From a virus (lineage: Duplodnaviria > Heunggongvirae > Uroviricota > Caudoviricetes): 9,625 nt of DNA. Position numbers and translations under genes: made by a program. The notes under the pieces are model-generated. The model did not search any database. It saw nothing but the letters and a program-made list of their open reading frames with translations, and was not told the origin of the DNA. The stretch lies in the IMG/VR virus record IMGVR_UViG_2740892370_000019. One strand, given 5' to 3'. This document shows positions 996 to 9,625 of this stretch, one piece after another (within the stretch, counting starts at the first letter, position 1; each line of letters starts with the position of its first letter).

Positions 996-1379
996 TCAAC
1001 CAATCAACTTATAGCGACCATCCCGTGCATTGCGACGTACACGCTCAATCTTGAGGCATAGCGCCGCATCTGGCTTTTTTGGGACAGGTACGCGGCAATA
1101 TTCAGAAGCTCGAGGAATATTGTTTATCCAGTCGATCACTTCACTTAAATACCAGGCCTTACGCCCTTCCGTAACCTGTACGCGTTCGGGGAACTCTCCG
1201 CGAGCCTCAAGGTTTAGCAATGTGCGACGGCTAAGGGTAGTAAGTTCCATCACCTGATTCATATCAACAAGGCGTTCACTTAAACGCATTTTGTCAGCAA
1301 TAGCCTTTAATTCCTCTACTGCTGGATCCGGATACATCATTTCGGCAATTGGCTTAAGGTCATTGTAATGATTCTGCAT
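996..1379 (-). CDS. AlpA-family (phage excisionase/regulator-like) HTH protein with N- and C-terminal extensions, 127 aa
   Basis: The central segment LTTLSRRTLLNLEARGEFPERVQVTEGRKAWYLSEVIDWI fits the AlpA/Xis-type winged-helix signature (hydrophobic HTH, GxFP, R..W..SEV..W). The ATG at 1379 is preceded by AGGGGG at 6 nt and sits 11 nt after the stop of the upstream decoration gene, suggesting coupled expression. The stop abuts the cos site. Confidence 0.65.
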   Translation of the reverse strand: MQNHYNDLKPIAEMMYPDPAVEELKAIADKMRLSERLVDMNQVMELTTLSRRTLLNLEARGEFPERVQVTEGRKAWYLSEVIDWINNIPRASEYCRVPVPKKPDAALCLKIERVRRNARDGRYKLIG

Positions 1380-1390
1380 TGTATCCCCCT

Positions 1391-1732
1391 TTACACACGA
1401 GCCAGCGGCTGAACAGAAATACCTGAGCCAACAAACGCGGCAACCTTTGCCGACAGTTCTTTTACAGACTCAGGCCAGTTCAGAGCATCAACATTTAAAA
1501 CACCTGTCTTATAAACCTGTGCCTGTGTTTTTTTCGCTGTGTCGATTTGTACAGCGGAAACATAAACCGCTTTGCCTGCGCTCGTTCCATCCCATACCAC
1601 TAGCGCACCAGTTGCATCTTCCTGCATCAGTGGCGTAAACGCAGGTATTACCCCTTTATTGGCTGAAAATATCCCCAGCGTAGTAACCAGTGCTTCAGTG
1701 CCAGACATGAGTTCAGTGTAATGAGTAGCCAT
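1391..1732 (-). CDS. Head decoration protein, lambda gpD-like (113 aa)
   Basis: TPLMQEDATGALVVWDGTSAGKAVYVSAV...YKTGVLNVDALNWPES...AAFVGSGISV matches remembered lambda gpD ([29 protein letters not shown]...YKSGTFRYEDVLWPEA...AFAGTAISIV). Size matches gpD (about 110 aa). GGGGGAG Shine-Dalgarno before the ATG at 1732; 9 nt from the capsid gene stop. Confidence 0.85.
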   Translation of the reverse strand: MATHYTELMSGTEALVTTLGIFSANKGVIPAFTPLMQEDATGALVVWDGTSAGKAVYVSAVQIDTAKKTQAQVYKTGVLNVDALNWPESVKELSAKVAAFVGSGISVQPLARV

Positions 1733-1741
1733 TGCTCCCCC

Positions 1742-2788
1742 TTAGCCAATGCGAACGGTAACAAAACGATTGATGCGGGCCGGTATTGGCTGTGGTGCTG
1801 AATGTGTCTGCACATATTCAATAGCCGGATCACCAGGCACAATATAGTTTTTCGGTGCAAGTTCGGCTTTAGTCAGCCCCATCCGGATTAGCTCCGGATC
1901 CTGAATACCGCCATAAGCGACAATCCCCTGAAGAGCCGTATTGCCAAGCACCATCAAATCAGGATCAAGGAAATATTTTTCAGTTCCGTCCTCGTCGGTA
2001 TAACGCCCGCTGTAAACAACAATCGCAACATCGCCCATATACCCTTTAAAACTCACCGAATCACCAAGGTCTTTAAGGGCCGTTTCCAGTTCGGAATTAG
2101 AACCACGACGAGTATCCAGAGCCTCTTTTATCGCCCTGAATGAACGGTATTTCTTCCATACATTACCGCCCATAATGATAATATTAGTGACGCCCTCACT
2201 AAATTCTGCGTAGCTCTCAATATCATCATTTGGATCAAAAGCTTCTTTATCCTTACCTGACCACTCAGCACCGCCAGACTGAGTGATGATATTTTGTGGT
2301 TTAATATTCCAGTCCAGCTCATAACGTTCAATACCATCGCCCTCAATGATATTTTTCCCCGTTGTGATTGCCTGAACGGCAAGCCATTCAATACGTGCAC
2401 GAATAGCTTTAGCCTGATTTACAATCGCCTGTTTAACTTTAATATTACGCGCTCCAAAAGCATTGTATTGCTCAGGTGATACACCAGCAGGGCGCACAGC
2501 TAACTTATTTGGATCAATGCTGCTTTTCGGTTTCATATAGCCAGGGCGAATTGTTTTTGATTCGTATCCCTCATCTCGTGAAACTTTACTGCCCACCATA
2601 GGAGAGCAAAACGCCGCGATCGGGATATTTGGATCGTCGATCGTATCAAGAATAATTTCTCTCGATTCAAACATTACCGAGCGAGTGAAAAACAAACTGG
2701 TAAACAACGCATTTAATTTTTTTTGCACATCTTCAGCATTAGCCACCTGCACAAGCTGTGTAGGCGAATATAAGTCAACCATACTCAT
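1742..2788 (-). CDS. Major capsid protein, lambda gpE-like (about 347 aa)
   Basis: Long collinear similarity to remembered lambda gpE: N-terminus MSMVDLYSPTQLVQVANAE versus MSMYTTAQLLAANEQ; core NIITQSGGAEWSGKDKEAFDPNDDIESYAEFSEGVTNIII...FRAIKEALDTRRGSNSELETALKDLGDSVSFKGYMGDVAIVVYSGRY versus lambda NITQSGGTEWSKRDKSTYDPTDDIEAYALNASGVVNIIV...FKAVKEKLDTRRGSNSELETAVKDLGKAVSYKGMYGDVAIVVYSGQY. The track ORF (to 2869) is over-extended upstream; the true start is the ATG at 2788 (MSM...) or at 2782, the latter having AAAGAGG at ideal spacing. Confidence 0.9.
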   Translation of the reverse strand: MSMVDLYSPTQLVQVANAEDVQKKLNALFTSLFFTRSVMFESREIILDTIDDPNIPIAAFCSPMVGSKVSRDEGYESKTIRPGYMKPKSSIDPNKLAVRPAGVSPEQYNAFGARNIKVKQAIVNQAKAIRARIEWLAVQAITTGKNIIEGDGIERYELDWNIKPQNIITQSGGAEWSGKDKEAFDPNDDIESYAEFSEGVTNIIIMGGNVWKKYRSFRAIKEALDTRRGSNSELETALKDLGDSVSFKGYMGDVAIVVYSGRYTDEDGTEKYFLDPDLMVLGNTALQGIVAYGGIQDPELIRMGLTKAELAPKNYIVPGDPAIEYVQTHSAPQPIPARINRFVTVRIG

Positions 2789-2953: not shown

Positions 2954-2994
2954 ATGCCGGAAAATCTATTTTTTTCCGGCATCTTTTTGTTTGC
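2954..2994 (+). terminator. Strong stem-loop with T-tract (intrinsic-terminator-like) between the SSB and capsid genes
   Basis: Perfect 11-bp inverted repeat ATGCCGGAAAA (2954..2964) / TTTTCCGGCAT (2972..2982) with a 7-nt loop, followed on the plus strand by CTTTTTGTTT. It is canonical only for plus-strand transcription; read on the minus strand the stem lacks a downstream U-tract, so any termination of the ssb transcript would be weak or factor-dependent. Confidence 0.45.
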
Positions 2995-2999
2995 AGAAT

Positions 3000-3422
3000 T
3001 TAAAACGGTATATTATCGCCGTACGGATCATCATTCCCCGACTGTTGTTTTGCCCTGTTCAGTGCGTCAGTGGCCTGCCCCTGCTGGCCTTTTTTGCCGC
3101 CCGGTCGCGCTGTTCGCGCACTGATCACGCTGTCTGCGATAACCTGCCAGCCCTGCCGCGTTTCGCCGTTCTGGCCTGTCCACTGGCTTACCTGCATGTT
3201 ACCCGCCACGCTCACCAGTTCGCCTTTGTGGTGTTTTGCCAGTGCGTCGGCCTGTCTGCCAAACGCCAGGACGGATAACCACATCATCGCCGTTCCGTCA
3301 TCTGCCTGGCTGCACGGAAGGGGGACCGCCATACTAGCCATCGCCATTTGTGTACCCTTGCTGGTGGTCTTTAACTGCGGGTCAGCCACCAGCCGTCCGT
3401 AAGCCGCTATCTGTGCTGTCAT
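3000..3422 (-). CDS. ssb: Single-stranded DNA-binding protein (SSB-like, OB-fold, 140 aa)
   Basis: OB-fold region (GRLVADPQLKTT..., WLSVLAFGRQADALAKHHKGELVSVAGNMQVSQWTGQNGETRQGWQVIADSV) aligns with remembered E. coli SSB ([50 protein letters not shown]). Gly/Gln-rich linker and acidic C-terminal tip ...NDDPYGDNIPF resemble the SSB ...DDDIPF tail. The start overlaps the stop of the upstream 80-aa gene (ATGA). Confidence 0.75.
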   Translation of the reverse strand: MTAQIAAYGRLVADPQLKTTSKGTQMAMASMAVPLPCSQADDGTAMMWLSVLAFGRQADALAKHHKGELVSVAGNMQVSQWTGQNGETRQGWQVIADSVISARTARPGGKKGQQGQATDALNRAKQQSGNDDPYGDNIPF

Positions 3423-3661
3423 GCTGTCTGCTCTCCGGTTTTAACGTTGATGGTTGTCACCTGTTCCGCTTCGGCAATCTCCCGTTCTGTCAGCGTGGCA
3501 AAGTTTGCAGCTGCCGTTGTCATGAATGCGCTTATCAGTTCGGGATGTGCTTTTGCATATCCTTCCCCCGTGTTTCGGTCGATGATTTTTATCGCCACTC
3601 TCAGCCAGTGCTCTGTAAGGTCAATAGCGCGGTAGTGTGGTTGTTTGCGGTTTGCCTTCAT
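3419..3661 (-). CDS. Hypothetical protein (80 aa), translationally coupled to the SSB-like gene
   Basis: Intact ORF starting at an ATG (3661) and ending in an ATGA overlap with the ssb start; the upstream Shine-Dalgarno is weak (GAGA). No family recognised from the sequence MKANRKQPHYRAIDLTEHWLRVAIKIIDRNTGEGYAKAHPELISAF... Confidence 0.5.
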   Translation of the reverse strand: MKANRKQPHYRAIDLTEHWLRVAIKIIDRNTGEGYAKAHPELISAFMTTAAANFATLTEREIAEAEQVTTINVKTGEQTA

Positions 3662-3701
3662 AGTTCAGATCTCAATTTTTCGTATATATATACAAAACAG
3701 T

Positions 3702-4024
3702 GCGGGTTATGCGGGTTAGCGGGTTAGCGGGTTATCTTCGCTTGCTAAGTATTTTTTATTCCTTAATATCAATACATTACAAAATTAACTGTTTACTGTT
3801 TAGCCGTGGCGTAACCCGCAAAATGCTCAAAATAACCCGCAAACGGGGTTTTTTCTGCGGGTTACGCGTGGCTGTTTGCTGTCACTTCCTGTTATTCATC
3901 TGCGGGTTATAATCGCACTTTTGCGGGTTATAACTGCCGTTTTGCGGGTTACGTGCGAGTTATTGATTTCCTTTTTATTCATGCAGTTAATGCACTTATA
4001 CACAGAGTAACCCGCATAACCCGC
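3702..4024. repeat. Iteron array and AT-rich region, putative replication origin
   Basis: Twelve copies of the 8-bp motif GCGGGTTA or its complement TAACCCGC: four tandem copies at 3702..3734; complement copies at 3812..3819, 3833..3840, 4008..4015, 4017..4024; direct copies at 3857..3864, 3902..3909, 3923..3930, 3944..3951, several extended to TTTTGCGGGTTA. They flank an AT-rich stretch at about 3735..3800, directly downstream of the primase-like gene. Confidence 0.7.
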
Positions 4025-4047: not shown

Positions 4048-6171
4048 TTAATCTTCTGCCTCAGGCTGGAACATCAGCACGTAAAAAACATGCTGCTTCC
4101 CCCCAATTTTGCCGAGAGCCTTTTTCTTGTAACGGCGATCGTTACCCGCTTCCAGCATTCCGGCAGCACTCAACGCGCGGGCAAAGTGGGACGGGTTAAA
4201 TCCCTGTGCGATCTCCCCCTCAAACACATGAGGAAACGTGTAAAAACGGAACTCATCATCTTCATTTCTGATACTCCCCTTTCTGTATCCGGCAAGGTCT
4301 TTAATCGGTAAATCACGTTCATCACTGTTTGGGTAAGGAAGGTATCGACTGAACCCGAACGACGACAAAAACGCCTCAGCCTGTTCAACCATCTGTTTAA
4401 ATTCCCTGTTACCCGTGCCGAACTCCTTCACCCAGGCATTAAAGTTATGCTGTATTGCGTCCCGGCATTCCTGCGCGGCCCAGCCAGTTACATGACCGGA
4501 AAGCACAAGCGCGGCCTCCAGTATGGCGAAACGCTCACCCACGCGGTGGACCTGCTCGCCGTAGCTCTCCGGTATCAGGTTGCGCCACCGTTCGCGGCAT
4601 TCCCTTACCGTATCCTTTGCCTCCTGCTGGTGGCCTGCCAGCCATTTAACCCACTCACGACCCGCTGCCCCGTGATTTTCTGTCCAGGCATCCTTTAACG
4701 CGTCTGCGTGCGCCTTTCCGGTGCTGTATTCGTGAAAGTGCGTGGCTTTTTCCATCGGAACGTTAAGCAGGCGGACAAGCTGCCCCGCTTTGACTTTTAT
4801 CCCCTCCGTTTTGAGGAATGTCTCAACGTCCATTTCTCCGGTGCTGATTGCCACCGTGCGCCAGTGTTTTATCTCCCGGTTGCCGCCGTCCTTCGCCCCC
4901 TGTAATTTCCCGGAACCGTTAAACAACGTATAGGCTGACGTGGACACCTCCCGCGCGTTTCCGGCCTGGCCTATTTCATCCAGGGGTAACAGCCCGTCGT
5001 TGTGCGCCTCTGCCTCGTTAGCGATACCTAACGCTGTGCCGTACCAGGTCAGCCGTTGTGCGTCCGGCTCTCCCCATAAACTTGATGCGATGTTCTGCGT
5101 GGTGGTTTTCCCTGCCGATGACTGTTCGAAAAGATGTACCCCGAAGCCGTCAGCACCAACAAGGCCAATCAAAGGTGCTGCCAGTGACGTGGCAACACCC
5201 AGCATCATGGACGGATTGCCACCAGCCAGCCGCGCCACGCAGTCGCGCCAGCCCTCCGCCGTACCCGCAACCGAATAGCCATTAACAGCGGCACTTTTTC
5301 CGGTAAACAGGATCGGTTTTTCAGAATCACCAATGATTGAGCCGTCCGGCATGATATACGCGCCAAAATGCCAGCCCGTTGTTGTGCTTAGCTGCCATTC
5401 CTCATGGCTTCCGCTTAACTGCATCCAGTCAGCCAGGATAGCCCTGTATTTGCCGTTTGTTGTCACGTTCAGCCCGTGATCTTTAAGCAACCGCCAGCCG
5501 TCACGGTCGCCAATGCCACCACACGGGATCGCCATTGTGATGACTTCATGGTTTGCTAATTTTTTCCAGCGCATCACGCGGTAATGCTCTTTACCGATCG
5601 TCCCCGTTCCCAGTAGTTCAAGCGGAGAACATAACCACGTCTCAGGCCGGATAATTTCGCCTGACTGCTTATCCACTTTGGGCGTTACCCAGAAAACACC
5701 ATCGACGCGACTTTCAACGCGGGGCTTTAATTCATCATCCTGATAGCATGGCTCTTTTTTCTTTACAGGCAGTTCAACTACCTTTTTCTTTTCCGCCTGC
5801 TCTGCCCGTTCACGTTCCAGATATTCGCGCCAGTTCTCCCGTTTCTGGCTGTGCATTCCTTCAGGGTAATAATCAGCATCCCTGACACCTGCCGCTGCCA
5901 GTTTCTGCCCGATGGTATTAACAAGCCCCGGACGCAATAACCCCGCCTGGTAGAGACGCACGCGATAGCGTCCGTCCGGTACGATTTGCAGGTTGTCCAG
6001 TTCGGCAAGTTGTTGCTCTCCAAGCCAGACAGGTGGCACGTTATCGCCAGCCAGTCGCCCGTCCTGTTCCTGCCACTGCTTCGCATGTGCCCACGCATCA
6101 CTACCCGCAAAAATGATGACTTCCGTCATTTTGTCACGCGGCTGGTGTTTTAAATTTGGCGCTTTTTTCAT
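4048..6171 (-). CDS. Replication protein, primase/helicase-like (P4 alpha / D5-type family assignment tentative), about 707 aa
   Basis: Large ORF with a central P-loop-like motif FEQSSAGKTT. It is the last gene of an operon beginning near the operator region and lies next to the iteron array, the layout expected for a satellite pri-rep gene. The track start at 6186 is a GTG; the ATG at 6171 (MKKAPNL...) has GGAGAG at about 8 nt and overlaps the stop of the upstream gene. Family membership was not verified. Confidence 0.75.
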   Translation of the reverse strand: MKKAPNLKHQPRDKMTEVIIFAGSDAWAHAKQWQEQDGRLAGDNVPPVWLGEQQLAELDNLQIVPDGRYRVRLYQAGLLRPGLVNTIGQKLAAAGVRDADYYPEGMHSQKRENWREYLERERAEQAEKKKVVELPVKKKEPCYQDDELKPRVESRVDGVFWVTPKVDKQSGEIIRPETWLCSPLELLGTGTIGKEHYRVMRWKKLANHEVITMAIPCGGIGDRDGWRLLKDHGLNVTTNGKYRAILADWMQLSGSHEEWQLSTTTGWHFGAYIMPDGSIIGDSEKPILFTGKSAAVNGYSVAGTAEGWRDCVARLAGGNPSMMLGVATSLAAPLIGLVGADGFGVHLFEQSSAGKTTTQNIASSLWGEPDAQRLTWYGTALGIANEAEAHNDGLLPLDEIGQAGNAREVSTSAYTLFNGSGKLQGAKDGGNREIKHWRTVAISTGEMDVETFLKTEGIKVKAGQLVRLLNVPMEKATHFHEYSTGKAHADALKDAWTENHGAAGREWVKWLAGHQQEAKDTVRECRERWRNLIPESYGEQVHRVGERFAILEAALVLSGHVTGWAAQECRDAIQHNFNAWVKEFGTGNREFKQMVEQAEAFLSSFGFSRYLPYPNSDERDLPIKDLAGYRKGSIRNEDDEFRFYTFPHVFEGEIAQGFNPSHFARALSAAGMLEAGNDRRYKKKALGKIGGKQHVFYVLMFQPEAED

Positions 6172-6467
6172 TTCTGCTCTCTCCACGCGGCAATCATGTT
6201 TTTCAGTTCCTGTAGTTTTTTATCAACATCCATACATGACACATGGTTATTTCTGGAAGGCGGGATTTCCCGCCGGAATCTGCAAATAAAGATCTCCACG
6301 TTCAGCGAGCTATGAAATGAATAGCCATCACGAATAAAATACACACGGTCAAACATTATCGATTTTACTGTTACTCTGTTGCCGTTCTTATCCCAATAAA
6401 TAGCGCCGGGGATAATTTTGGGGTGTGCATAACCGCTGGCAGTCAAGCCAGATAAATATGTTCTCAT
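6168..6467 (-). CDS. Hypothetical protein (99 aa), AT-rich, coupled to the primase gene
   Basis: ATG at 6467 with GGGGA upstream; 6-nt gap from the preceding gene; stop overlaps the primase start. Visibly lower GC than the flanking primase gene. No family recognised. Confidence 0.6.
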   Translation of the reverse strand: MRTYLSGLTASGYAHPKIIPGAIYWDKNGNRVTVKSIMFDRVYFIRDGYSFHSSLNVEIFICRFRREIPPSRNNHVSCMDVDKKLQELKNMIAAWREQK

Positions 6468-6473
6468 GATTAT

Positions 6474-6794
6474 TTATCCCCGATTTGAATCAGTATTCGC
6501 TTTCTTTATGGCATTTAATGCATTTGTGGCATTTTCAATGGTGCACCGTAGCGAAATATCAAAATGCCCAAGCATTGCCAGTAACAAACCAATATTACCC
6601 ATATCAATGCGCATGGCCTTTTCGTCATAGTCCTCATTTTCTGACGCATGCCACATCAGGCTACCAATTGACGCAACAGCCATTGATATATTGTCAGTAG
6701 CCCCATCCGCAGCGGAATAAACCTTTTTAGCAATATCATGCTCACAGTTAAAATGCGGATTAATCAGGTACTGGTAATTTGACATATCAGGCAT
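6474..6794 (-). CDS. Hypothetical protein (106 aa), AT-rich
   Basis: The ATG at 6794 overlaps the stop of the upstream small ORF (ATGCCTGA overlap); compact operon arrangement. No family recognised. Confidence 0.6.
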   Translation of the reverse strand: MPDMSNYQYLINPHFNCEHDIAKKVYSAADGATDNISMAVASIGSLMWHASENEDYDEKAMRIDMGNIGLLLAMLGHFDISLRCTIENATNALNAIKKANTDSNRG

Positions 6795-6990
6795 GGAACA
6801 CCCCCTGACGAATACGGGCGGCGAATACCATCACGCAGCCAGCCGGGGATTGCTGGCGTGCTTCCTGTTCGCTGCTGGCCTCAATGGTAATCACGCGCGG
6901 TTGTGCCGTACTCAGGGCGATAAAACGCCAGATGTATTTATTCAGGTTGTGCGAGTCCCGCCCTTGCGGGTGTGTGGTATGATTTAGCAT
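6787..6990 (-). CDS. Hypothetical small protein (67 aa), first gene of the replication operon
   Basis: ATG at 6990 preceded by GAGGT at 5 nt; the stop overlaps the next gene start. The track shows this only as the C-terminal end of an implausible 367-aa read-through ORF. GC-rich, and an opposite-strand ORF (6793..6987) exists, so coding status is uncertain. Confidence 0.35.
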   Translation of the reverse strand: MLNHTTHPQGRDSHNLNKYIWRFIALSTAQPRVITIEASSEQEARQQSPAGCVMVFAARIRQGVFHA

Positions 6991-7087
6991 AGCTACCTCG
7001 ATAATCTTTCTATCGTTGGTGGTTAGAAGCCCGGTTAGTGTTAGCGCACTGCCGGGTTTCGTCGTTTCTGCACCTTGCATCAACAAG

Positions 7088-7160
7088 GTGTTAAACACCA
7101 ATTTAAGCCTAGGTGTTAAACACGTCAAGTGTTGAACACTTATTTTTTTTCCTGCATACT
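7088..7160. promoter_or_regulatory. Three palindromic operators with an overlapping candidate promoter for the plus-strand regulator gene
   Basis: GTGTTAAACAC at 7088..7098 and 7113..7123, and GTGTTGAACAC at 7129..7139; each has half-sites GTGTT/AACAC forming an inverted repeat. Centre spacings are about 25 and 16 bp. TTGAAC (7132..7137) lies inside the third operator, then a 17-bp spacer and CATACT (7155..7160), about 30 bp before the ATG at 7190. Confidence 0.55.
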
Positions 7161-7189
7161 GCATTTGTTTTTTGTAAGGGGTACACAAC

Positions 7190-7369
7190 ATGGCGACAAA
7201 AGCAGTAAACGCAAAATCACAAACAGTTGCGGCAAGGGTTCCGCATGAAGTTATGAACAATGTTGAGGCGGTAAAAATGCCTGGTGAAAGTACAGGGCAG
7301 TTTGTAACAGCAGCATTAAAGCGAGAAGTTGAATACCGCCAGCGTCGCAAGGCCAAAGAGCAGGAGTAA
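7190..7369 (+). CDS. Small ribbon-helix-helix-like DNA-binding protein (59 aa), candidate repressor
   Basis: Not in the ORF track (under 60 aa). MATKAVNAKSQTVAARVPHEVMNNVEAVKMPGESTGQFVTAALKREVEYRQRRKAKEQE: a TVAARVP beta-strand followed by two short helices fits the RHH (CopG/Arc-like) pattern. AAGGGG Shine-Dalgarno about 9 nt upstream; sits directly downstream of the operator triplet. Confidence 0.5.
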   Translation: MATKAVNAKSQTVAARVPHEVMNNVEAVKMPGESTGQFVTAALKREVEYRQRRKAKEQE

Positions 7370-7426
7370 CCATCACCAGCGCCGTGGTGCGGTGAACTGT
7401 GGCGCACAGGGTTACAGGTATCTACG

Positions 7427-7624
7427 ATGACTGACAAATCATTAAAGAAATTATCCTCATCCAGGGAAAAACAACGCAAAAACGCGGTAAGCGAACAAGA
7501 ACAGGAAAGATTCGCACCATGTGCGTTTGTCCTTGAGAAGTTCCTTAAAGAGTACAGGCGCACAAAAATGGGATCGCATACCTGGAAAACATCGCAGCAT
7601 GGCGATGCTAAAGAGCAGGAATAG
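7427..7624 (+). CDS. Hypothetical small basic protein (65 aa)
   Basis: ATG with AGG at about 7 nt; charged, Lys/Arg/Glu-rich composition. Lies between the RHH-like gene and the plus-strand terminator. An overlapping opposite-strand ORF (7457..7645) looks like low-complexity hydrophobic read-through. Confidence 0.3.
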   Translation: MTDKSLKKLSSSREKQRKNAVSEQEQERFAPCAFVLEKFLKEYRRTKMGSHTWKTSQHGDAKEQE

Positions 7625-7712
7625 CCCACCAGCAAGCCAGCACACTGATCACATTGCCCACCAGCCAGCAAATCGCTATGATGTTCGGGCTTATGTTTAG
7701 TGTTTTCCCATT

Positions 7713-7740
7713 GGCGACCGCCCCCGGTCGCCTTTGTTTT
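7713..7740 (+). terminator. Rho-independent terminator
   Basis: Perfect 8-bp GC-rich stem GGCGACCG (7713..7720) / CGGTCGCC (7725..7732) with loop CCCC, followed by TTTGTTTT (7733..7740). Placed where the plus-strand small genes converge on alpA. Confidence 0.65.
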
Positions 7741-7759
7741 ATGTGTCATATGCTCCCCT

Positions 7760-7969
7760 TTACGCTGCCTTTCCTGAATTAATGCGATCCCGGCTTTTAA
7801 CCCATTCCATAACCTCAGACTTAACCCAGCCAACCGAACGACCTCCAAGACTGATACGGGAGGGAAAGCGGCCTTGTTTTTCCATCTCATAACGAGTTGT
7901 ACGGCAAACGCCTGTTAGCTCTCTGCATTCTTTTTCACGGATTACACGATCTTCATTTATTTCGCGCAT
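7760..7969 (-). CDS. alpA: AlpA-family prophage regulatory protein (69 aa from the ATG at 7969; possible longer form from GTG at 8053)
   Basis: CRELTGVCRTTRYEMEKQGRFPSRISLGGRSVGWVKSEVMEWV matches the AlpA signature (HTH, G.FP, R.VGW..SEV.EW). Adjacent to and co-oriented with the integrase, as in CP4-57/P4-like elements. The track N-terminus starts at a GTG. Confidence 0.8.
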   Translation of the reverse strand: MREINEDRVIREKECRELTGVCRTTRYEMEKQGRFPSRISLGGRSVGWVKSEVMEWVKSRDRINSGKAA

Positions 7970-8053
7970 AAAAAGCCCTACATAAAATTTACGTATAGAA
8001 ATTTTTGTTTCGCTGTGGATATACGGGAAGGAATACTTCTTAGCTTTTTTCAC

Positions 8054-8386: not shown

Positions 8387-9625
8387 TCAAGAATTTTGGG
8401 TGTAAATTCGCGGGGTCATAACAACGATTTTTTCATCATTGTTCTGGAGAAGCTCGAGACGGTCTACCCATAGATTAAGAGCATCACGTTTTGCATCAAG
8501 ATAGCGGGAGTGGTTATAGACTCGTTGCATCCCTGGCATCTGGTGGGCTGTAAGCTGCTCGACAATATGCGGATCCACGCCTAAATCGTTCAGCATGGTT
8601 GTAAATGTGTGCCGGATATCGTGTAACGTCCAGGGGGCTTGATTAATTCGTCTGTGCGCTGTTCTTCCGTACTCTGCTACCGAAGATTGTCCTTTCAGTT
8701 CACCAAGCAATAAGCCCGTGTGTCTGTTCTGCTCCACCAGCTGCGTGATGAACGGCAAAATGCTTTCCGGTATTGGCCTGAATATGGCGACCTTCGTTTT
8801 GCTGTGCTCCTTCGGTACCGTCCAGAGCATTTCTTTAAAATCCCACTCCTGCACCTCAGAGCGCCTTAGCTCGGTGGTACGGCATCCGAAAACAATCAGG
8901 AGGCGAATTAGGGCGCTGTAGTACGGCGGGAATATTTTGTCATCCAGGGCGCGGAGTAATTCCCCAAGCTCCTTGTTTGTTAGTACGCGCTCGCTCACTT
9001 CTGCTTTTTTTCCCACATCACCGACAACCATATCATCAAGAACGTTGCTGATTGCGTATCGTCGTTTTCGGCAGTACTTAAGCGCCTGTTTGCATACCTG
9101 TAGCAAAAATCCGGCAGATACTGGGCTTCGCTTTGCCATCTGGTCAAAACATGCCAACCAGTGCCGTAGCTCGCATTTTTCCAACGGCAAAGCGCCAATC
9201 TGGCTGATTATGTGTTTATTGATCCGGCTTTTCAGTGATTCGTAGTCAGTGCGCTTTTCCTTTGCATACGATTCAAGCCAGTAAGTGAGCGCTTCCTTAA
9301 CTGTCACGGGGGCTAACGCATCCTGTACAGCACGATTAAGCTCATAGCGCGGATTTTTCCCCTCAGCCAGCCAGGCGCGACACTGTGCTGCTATTTCCCT
9401 GGCTGCTTTCAGGCTCAGATCGGGATAATTGCCCAGTCTCAGACGTTCCGGTGATACCTGCCTACCAGTTCCGGCCCTGTAAGTGAAATACCAGGTTAAC
9501 AGGCCGCTGGTGGAATGTCTTACGCTAAGATTGCCACCGTCATTAAAAAAGGCGTTTTTTGTGGTTGGTGATCCGCTTAATTTTCGTAAAAGAGTGTCGC
9601 TAAGTCTATGAATTGCGCTGCTCAT
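8387..9625 (-). CDS. int: Tyrosine site-specific integrase, P4-type (412 aa)
   Basis: Full-length ORF with the start at the window edge. The C-terminal catalytic region contains LHDIRHTFTT and ...GMQRVYNHSRYLD (His-x-x-Arg and the catalytic Tyr context). Size and the adjacent alpA are typical of P4-like integrase modules. Confidence 0.9.
   Translation of the reverse strand: MSSAIHRLSDTLLRKLSGSPTTKNAFFNDGGNLSVRHSTSGLLTWYFTYRAGTGRQVSPERLRLGNYPDLSLKAAREIAAQCRAWLAEGKNPRYELNRAVQDALAPVTVKEALTYWLESYAKEKRTDYESLKSRINKHIISQIGALPLEKCELRHWLACFDQMAKRSPVSAGFLLQVCKQALKYCRKRRYAISNVLDDMVVGDVGKKAEVSERVLTNKELGELLRALDDKIFPPYYSALIRLLIVFGCRTTELRRSEVQEWDFKEMLWTVPKEHSKTKVAIFRPIPESILPFITQLVEQNRHTGLLLGELKGQSSVAEYGRTAHRRINQAPWTLHDIRHTFTTMLNDLGVDPHIVEQLTAHQMPGMQRVYNHSRYLDAKRDALNLWVDRLELLQNNDEKIVVMTPRIYTQNS

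Follow-up and report, generated by a model that had tools for sequence, protein, structure and literature searches.

The window, by which we mean the whole stretch of 9,625 nucleotides that was analysed, carries on its minus strand a gene for a single-stranded DNA-binding protein (SSB) and, overlapping the start of this gene, a second one for an 80-aa protein. The pair sits where the original prediction had put it, between an iteron origin and head genes, the latter being homologues of lambda gpE and gpD that lie downstream (Table 1). We built the gene map from six-frame open reading frames (ORFs) combined with family scans against Pfam and PHROG. The genes int, alpA and pri-rep and the origin all share one direction (minus) on an island of ~10 kb at a specific att site, which is the layout of a GN-PICI. 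Structural genes are confined to an E-like capsid and a D-like decoration gene, and the capacity to hijack packaging would be represented by a Nu1-like (Rpp/TerS-like) gene.

Table 1. Features mapped in the window, in order of position
Feature	Position	Strand	Basis or remarks
Nu1-like small-terminase/Rpp-type protein, 181 aa	252-797	-	PF07471 1e-22, C-terminal part only
Second AlpA-like regulator	996-1379	-	ORFs and family scans
gpD-like decoration protein	1391-1732	-	PF02924
Lambda gpE-like major capsid protein	1742-2782	-	PF03864
Hairpin, 11-bp stem	2954-2982		18 nt downstream of the ssb stop codon
ssb, 140-aa SSB	3000-3422	-	PF00436, TIGR00621, phrog_44; SSB in RefSeq (WP_000126634.1)
ATGA stop/start overlap, 4 nt	3419-3422	-	Read from the sequence; links translation of the 80-aa gene to that of ssb
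80-aa gene, phrog_1231 family	3419-3661	-	phrog_1231 7e-49; predicted helical hairpin
Non-coding gap, 386 bp	Between pri-rep and the 80-aa ORF		Holds the iteron origin
Replication origin, 12 exact GCGGGTTA iterons	3702-4024	Both orientations	Two sets, with an AT-rich stretch at ~3740-3800 between them
pri-rep, DUF927 primase/helicase-type initiator	4048-6171	-	PF06048 2e-47; phrog_1139 'DNA primase' 1.4e-180; DUF927 protein in RefSeq (WP_000710147.1)
DUF4222 protein	6168-6467	-	ORFs and family scans
AlpA (alpA)	7760-8053	-	ORFs and family scans
Tyrosine integrase (int)	8387-9625	-	ORFs and family scans

Judged by these features, the window is an Escherichia coli phage satellite, a GN-PICI of the EcCICFT073 type. 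The earlier assumption that the DNA belongs to a satellite therefore held: the same island of ~10 kb is found in the E. coli chromosome NZ_CP071711, inserted with clpS on one side and cspD on the other, and is 100% identical to the window except for a 24-bp indel among the iterons, while other E. coli chromosomes match at 99-100%. EcCICFT073 itself is located at 1377749-1389210 of NC_004431 (Table S1 of PMC6092414). Helper-phage induction, replication and high-frequency transfer have been followed by experiment in EcCICFT073 and a few other PICIs only, and in EcCICFT073 the homologues of the capsid and decoration genes were dispensable for both transfer and interference (PMC6092414).

Several smaller observations concern the remainder of the island. 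The 181-aa product matches only the C-terminal half of Nu1 and is in this respect Rpp-like. Among the mechanically listed ORFs, one of 367 aa on the minus strand (6787-7890) is probably spurious, since over the same interval RefSeq annotates an Icd-like gene at ~6787-6990 (minus), a YlcI/YnfO gene at 7190-7369 (plus), a small gene at 7427-7624 (plus) and an alpA-type HTH gene. The initiator gene pri-rep also matches the NCBIfam family of the SCCmec replicative helicase Cch1, at an E value of 6.7e-10 that lies far under the family cut-off, and this weak match connects the initiators of PICIs with the self-loading helicases that staphylococcal elements carry. Rfam searches at gathering thresholds returned no RNA element in the window. 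Base composition is uneven along the island. The GC content is 58.6% in ssb (GC3 65%) and 54% in pri, as against 44-48% in the capsid and decoration genes and 48% in the window as a whole, and it falls to about 0.35 in the origin region. This unevenness between modules suggests a mosaic in which the replication and head modules may have different origins.

The 140-aa protein was readily assigned to the SSB family. It scored 57.4 bits against Pfam PF00436 (E = 1.7e-15; cut-off 26), 59.3 bits against TIGR00621 (cut-off 53.95) and E = 1.7e-38 against phrog_44 ('single strand DNA binding protein'), and all 24 of its matches among PDB sequences were SSBs, the best being that of Thermus (2.9e-10), with E. 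coli SSB (EcSSB) at about 1e-4. The protein consists of an OB domain (approximately residues 1-100), across which it is 26% identical to EcSSB, a short basic, Q-rich linker and the C-terminal tip PYGDNIPF, which has fewer acidic residues than the sequence DFDDDIPF. An OB-fold SSB with an acidic, IPF-type tip had been predicted, and these matches, together with the DNIPF end, bear that out. Proper alignment of the OB-fold residues that bind single-stranded DNA (ssDNA) gave a more divided answer: the equivalents of EcSSB W54, F60 and W88 (W48, F54 and W81) are kept, being invariant or nearly so in ~100 family clusters, whereas W40 is replaced by a conserved cysteine (C37), such that three of the four aromatic DNA-contact residues are retained. 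In addition, H55 of the tetramer interface is replaced by L49. Binding mode and oligomeric state may therefore differ from those of EcSSB. A C-terminus of the D-x-I-P-F type closes about 95% of 120 SSB-related clusters. By homology, then, the 140-aa protein is a true OB-fold SSB, if a divergent one, and the invariance of the three aromatic positions and of the IPF tip indicates purifying selection that would act on DNA binding and on the docking of partners. Two plus-strand ORFs that cross the gene pair (3070-3402 and 3350-3727) were rejected as antisense artefacts of this GC-rich stretch, the homology lying wholly on the minus strand.

The 80-aa protein had been described as having no recognisable family. 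This is correct for named families, with no match in Pfam, NCBIfam or PADLOC, but the profile search that had been proposed for it did find a home in PHROG 1231 (E = 7.3e-49, residues 3-79 aligning with profile positions 6-82 of 83), a family that carries no annotated function. Its close relatives, 163 clusters at 73-97% identity, come almost exclusively from Escherichia or Shigella. When 1.84 billion representatives were searched with a profile, a further 671 remote relatives emerged, mostly of 70-130 aa, that share the motif ID..FGEGYAK.HPELIAAFM.TAA.DF; all ten of those tested matched phrog_1231. One C-terminal segment, EAEQVTTINVK, hardly varies within the close Escherichia family but is unconserved in the remote relatives. 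AlphaFold2, run with a deep alignment, predicted a hairpin of two helices (residues 8-31 and 40-78; mean pLDDT 78.6, core above 90). Foldseek searches with this model gave no PDB match and, in BFVD, uncharacterised phage proteins only, and a profile search of PDB sequences returned nothing below E = 0.6.

Genomic context was no more telling. We examined phrog_1231 relatives at 21 genome loci and on 6 metagenome contigs, and their neighbourhoods were heterogeneous: the remote members lie beside DUF927 primases (in Nitrosomonas and Xenorhabdus), SMC, RadA, a CoA-transferase, an autotransporter and many small hypothetical genes, with primases next to only some of them. Guilt by association was ruled out as a route to the function of the family by contexts this varied. 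The primases in question are large and of the Toprim-DUF927 kind, and the bacteria that have them are unrelated. In Nitrosomonas (loci L005 and L006) the phrog_1231 relative lies upstream of the primase that it adjoins, and in a cf-PICI-like element of Xenorhabdus (L012) it lies downstream. This hints at a link between phrog_1231 and the DUF927 class of initiator rather than the SSB.

Translational coupling of the two genes, which the original prediction had proposed, is evident from the ATGA overlap, with a GGAG placed 10 nt ahead of the ssb start codon (ATG). EcCICFT073 (L004, 7785-8042 and 8039-8449) and a capsid-forming PICI (cf-PICI) of Shigella (L016, 5950-6228 and 6225-6530) share this overlap of 4 nt. 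Conservation of the overlap in these three elements would be expected if the 80-aa protein were a dedicated SSB partner, that is, a loader, chaperone or regulator that functions only as part of the pair. Coverage of both genes in 33 of 40 places, sampled across the spread of E. coli matches, points the same way, as does the EAEQVTTINVK segment that sets the close Escherichia family apart. The two genes nevertheless come apart in both directions. One cf-PICI (L026) has an SSB gene 94% identical at the DNA level directly after the same GCGGGTTA origin, and another element (L027) has an SSB gene behind a Toprim-DUF927 primase with different iterons, both lacking the 80-aa gene. In two further islands of E. 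coli (L035 and L036) the SSB gene is coupled instead to an unrelated 102-aa ORF, while a phrog_1231 paralogue, 58% identical to the protein of the window, is found 3.3 kb downstream, itself coupled to a different gene. Finally, there was no SSB gene near the remote phrog_1231 relatives at any of the 19 genome loci outside Escherichia and Shigella or the 6 metagenome loci. Because each gene occurs without the other, the 80-aa protein is, on this comparative evidence, not an obligate SSB partner, and a function restricted to the pair seems quite unlikely. The coupling described in the original prediction is real, then, but the notion of a partner was overstated, and we read the overlap as probable lineage-specific co-expression, with no evidence of an obligate complex.

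The origin upstream of the pair is sharply defined. The iteron GCGGGTTA occurs 12 times against 0.34 expected by chance, with every copy in the origin and none elsewhere in the window, and the layout agrees with that of the GN-PICI origins in Fig. 2 of PMC6092414. The 24-bp indel that distinguishes the window from NZ_CP071711 falls at 3710-3734, where the left set has four GCGGGTTA copies in the window and seven in NZ_CP071711; it is iteron copy-number variation, with three tandem GCGGGTTA fewer, in otherwise identical islands. On the other side of the pair, the replication module gives way to the head-gene module at the strong hairpin below ssb. This hairpin has its T-run on the plus strand, which makes it terminator-like for transcription antisense to the island genes. 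A sigma-70-like promoter site for the minus strand was seen at 2850-2823, upstream of the capsid gene.

The original prediction held that an SSB is not a typical satellite gene. This did not survive comparison with other islands, since SSB is standard in PICIs of the EcCICFT073 type and has been annotated there already. For EcCICFT073, Table S2 of Fillol-Salom et al. 2018 (PMC6092414) gives the corresponding gene, c1497, the label 'ssb' and shows orthologues of it across many PICIs, among them Z1845 from an element of EDL933 that was later studied as a cf-PICI. A 2023 study files SSB under the PICI category 'Replication', beside Primase and DUF5906, and in its supplement genes are arranged, for example, as '...DUF4222, Primase, SSB, ..., Phage_capsid...' (PMC10111431). 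RefSeq, too, annotates the pair on NZ_CP071711, as 'single-stranded DNA-binding protein' and 'hypothetical protein'. The anatomy of the locus is thus already known: it is another c1496/c1497 module, with a different initiator and integration site.

A query with both genes found 2635 places in 1869 of 5426 complete E. coli genomes, roughly one third. Among 50,697 phage records, by contrast, neither gene had a close relative; tblastn with the 80-aa protein found nothing there, and the best SSB matches were about 30% identical and came from Gram-positive phages. PICI-type SSBs were found in 52 of 72,556 plasmid records, mostly at below 60% identity. To judge from these counts, the enterobacterial SSB clade is essentially, in practice, a PICI/cf-PICI gene. 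Its place directly behind pri and ori is kept in the window, in EcCICFT073, in cf-PICIs and in the other variants examined, although the replication functions themselves change: this one clade accompanies at least three types of initiator and iteron, namely DUF927 with GCGGGTTA, D5_N/DUF5906 with GGTAGAC/TA and Toprim-DUF927 with GAGACAAC. The SSB therefore cannot be specific to an origin or an initiator. Two damaged copies, which point to turnover of the module among related islands, were also seen. Most of ssb has been lost by deletion in one E. coli island (L037), where the remnant is fused to a ProQ-like gene, and in the cf-PICI of Shigella flexneri (L016) the gene is broken into two pieces, one of 101 aa and one of 53 aa. 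Selection for ssb is consequently not absolute.

We place the pair at the distal end of an EcCICFT073-type replication module and regard the SSB as a generic, dispensable replication accessory, a reading to which we assign a probability of roughly 0.55. On helper-phage induction, we assume, transcription of the early operon (alpA to pri) would run on through the origin and take in the 80-aa gene and ssb, and the mRNA of these two would be translated as a coupled pair. In vivo the SSB would coat the ssDNA that is laid bare when Pri-Rep opens the iteron origin and unwinds it, and while the island replicates, and its D-x-I-P-F tip would dock the host partners of the chromosomal SSB, for example the Pol III chi subunit and PriA. 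The benefit would be extra SSB capacity while helper and satellite replicate at once. The 80-aa helical-hairpin protein would most likely be a separate accessory of the early or replication module that became coupled to ssb in one lineage. To have an SSB of their own beside the replication genes is common among phages, conjugative plasmids and SCCmec elements. The rep and ori of EcCICFT073 are enough by themselves to maintain a thermosensitive plasmid in DH5alpha (PMC6092414), from which it follows that the SSB is inessential for origin function, as befits an accessory. The searchable literature yielded no experiment on any PICI SSB, and neither a c1496/c1497 deletion nor ssDNA binding is reported there.

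The same divergence of the SSB can be read in terms of conflict. With an IPF tip that is strongly conserved on an OB core only 26% identical to that of EcSSB, the protein might serve mainly as a weapon or shield that titrates host SSB-interacting proteins, depriving the helper phage of them, or else host nucleases and the sensors of defence systems; in a variant of this idea, it would mask satellite ssDNA from defences that sense phage SSB or ssDNA. Lambdoid helper phages rely on host SSB, which makes competition conceivable, and the clade is specific to satellites, its nearest relatives being missing from sequenced enterobacterial phages. What is known of interference points elsewhere, however. 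In EcCICFT073, deletion of rppA (c1503) alone, with c1496 and c1497 present, brings back lambda plaques, at titres near those on an island-free host (PMC6739421), which argues against a major part for the SSB in interference. Moreover, neither of the two proteins matched a defence-system component in PADLOC at E values up to 0.01, and the conserved position of ssb is within the replication module, outside the interference/packaging and accessory regions. We therefore consider a weapon or shield unlikely, and a major anti-helper role for the SSB likewise. The 2019 Mol Cell screen was considered as a direct negative test of SSB interference and ruled out as such, since its individually cloned genes start at c1499 in the primer table and c1496 and c1497 are unlisted (PMC6739421).

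A more elaborate form of the argument would make the SSB, perhaps together with the phrog_1231 hairpin, a selective device, in which the divergent OB core marks ssDNA as belonging to the satellite. The host-like IPF tip could then pull limiting host replisome or repair partners to the satellite origin, to the cost of the helper, or the ssDNA could be hidden from defences that sense SSB or ssDNA. We hold this to be very unlikely; if true, it would add a new layer to the conflict between satellite, helper and host in one third of E. coli genomes.

At the other extreme, the SSB could be a passenger or a decaying gene, acquired with the replication module of another element and contributing nothing. 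Its GC content, well above that of the window and of the head genes (44%), suggests a mosaic origin, some elements have lost or split the gene, and the rep-ori plasmid replicates with no need of it. Such a gene would hardly be expected to remain intact in hundreds of protein clusters with its DNA-contact and tip residues invariant, nor to recur in roughly one E. coli genome out of three, on both PICI and cf-PICI backbones and with different initiators. This makes a mere passenger highly improbable, and a replication accessory that can be dispensed with remains the reading we prefer.

As it stands, the locus is a routine and annotated component of a well-described satellite family; it matters little in itself and will not surprise specialists. 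Its wider interest is functional and lies in the frequency of the pair in E. coli, in the presence of an SSB on a satellite of lambdoid phages that have none, and in phrog_1231 being a widespread family of small phage proteins.

Among named systems the closest is EcCICFT073, which shares with the window the succession of pri, iteron ori, a small ORF of 80-85 aa, a 4-nt overlap and an SSB of 136-140 aa (its own pair being c1496, 85 aa, and c1497, 136 aa), followed beyond the SSB by lambda-type capsid and decoration genes and then a Nu1-like Rpp/TerS gene. The two islands differ in the initiator (D5_N/DUF5906-type in EcCICFT073, DUF927 in the window), in the iterons (GGTAGAC/TA as against GCGGGTTA) and in the integration site (roxA(ycfD)-phoQ as against clpS-cspD), and in EcCICFT073 perC and one more small gene separate ssb from the capsid gene. 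For the 80-aa protein the counterpart is PHROG 1231, which it matches from end to end, the conserved C-terminal segment being peculiar to the Escherichia subfamily. The chromosomal SSB of E. coli has the OB fold, the three aromatic residues and the ...D-x-I-P-F tip in common with the SSB of the window, but besides the substitutions at W40 and H55 it is longer (178 aa as against 140 aa), with a linker of ~60 residues rich in G, Q and P where the satellite protein has a basic, Q-rich one of ~35. SSBs of Gram-positive temperate phages (for example Staphylococcus PVL and StB20-like phages) are the best matches in the phage collection, being full-length, of 130-150 aa and annotated as SSB, but they are only 27-30% identical. 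Mobile-element SSBs beside replication genes are also known from F-type plasmids (Ssb) and from SCCmec, where LP1413 lies next to the Cch helicase. To these the likeness is one of logic: a self-loading helicase or primase on a mobile element comes together with an ssDNA-binding protein of the element's own.
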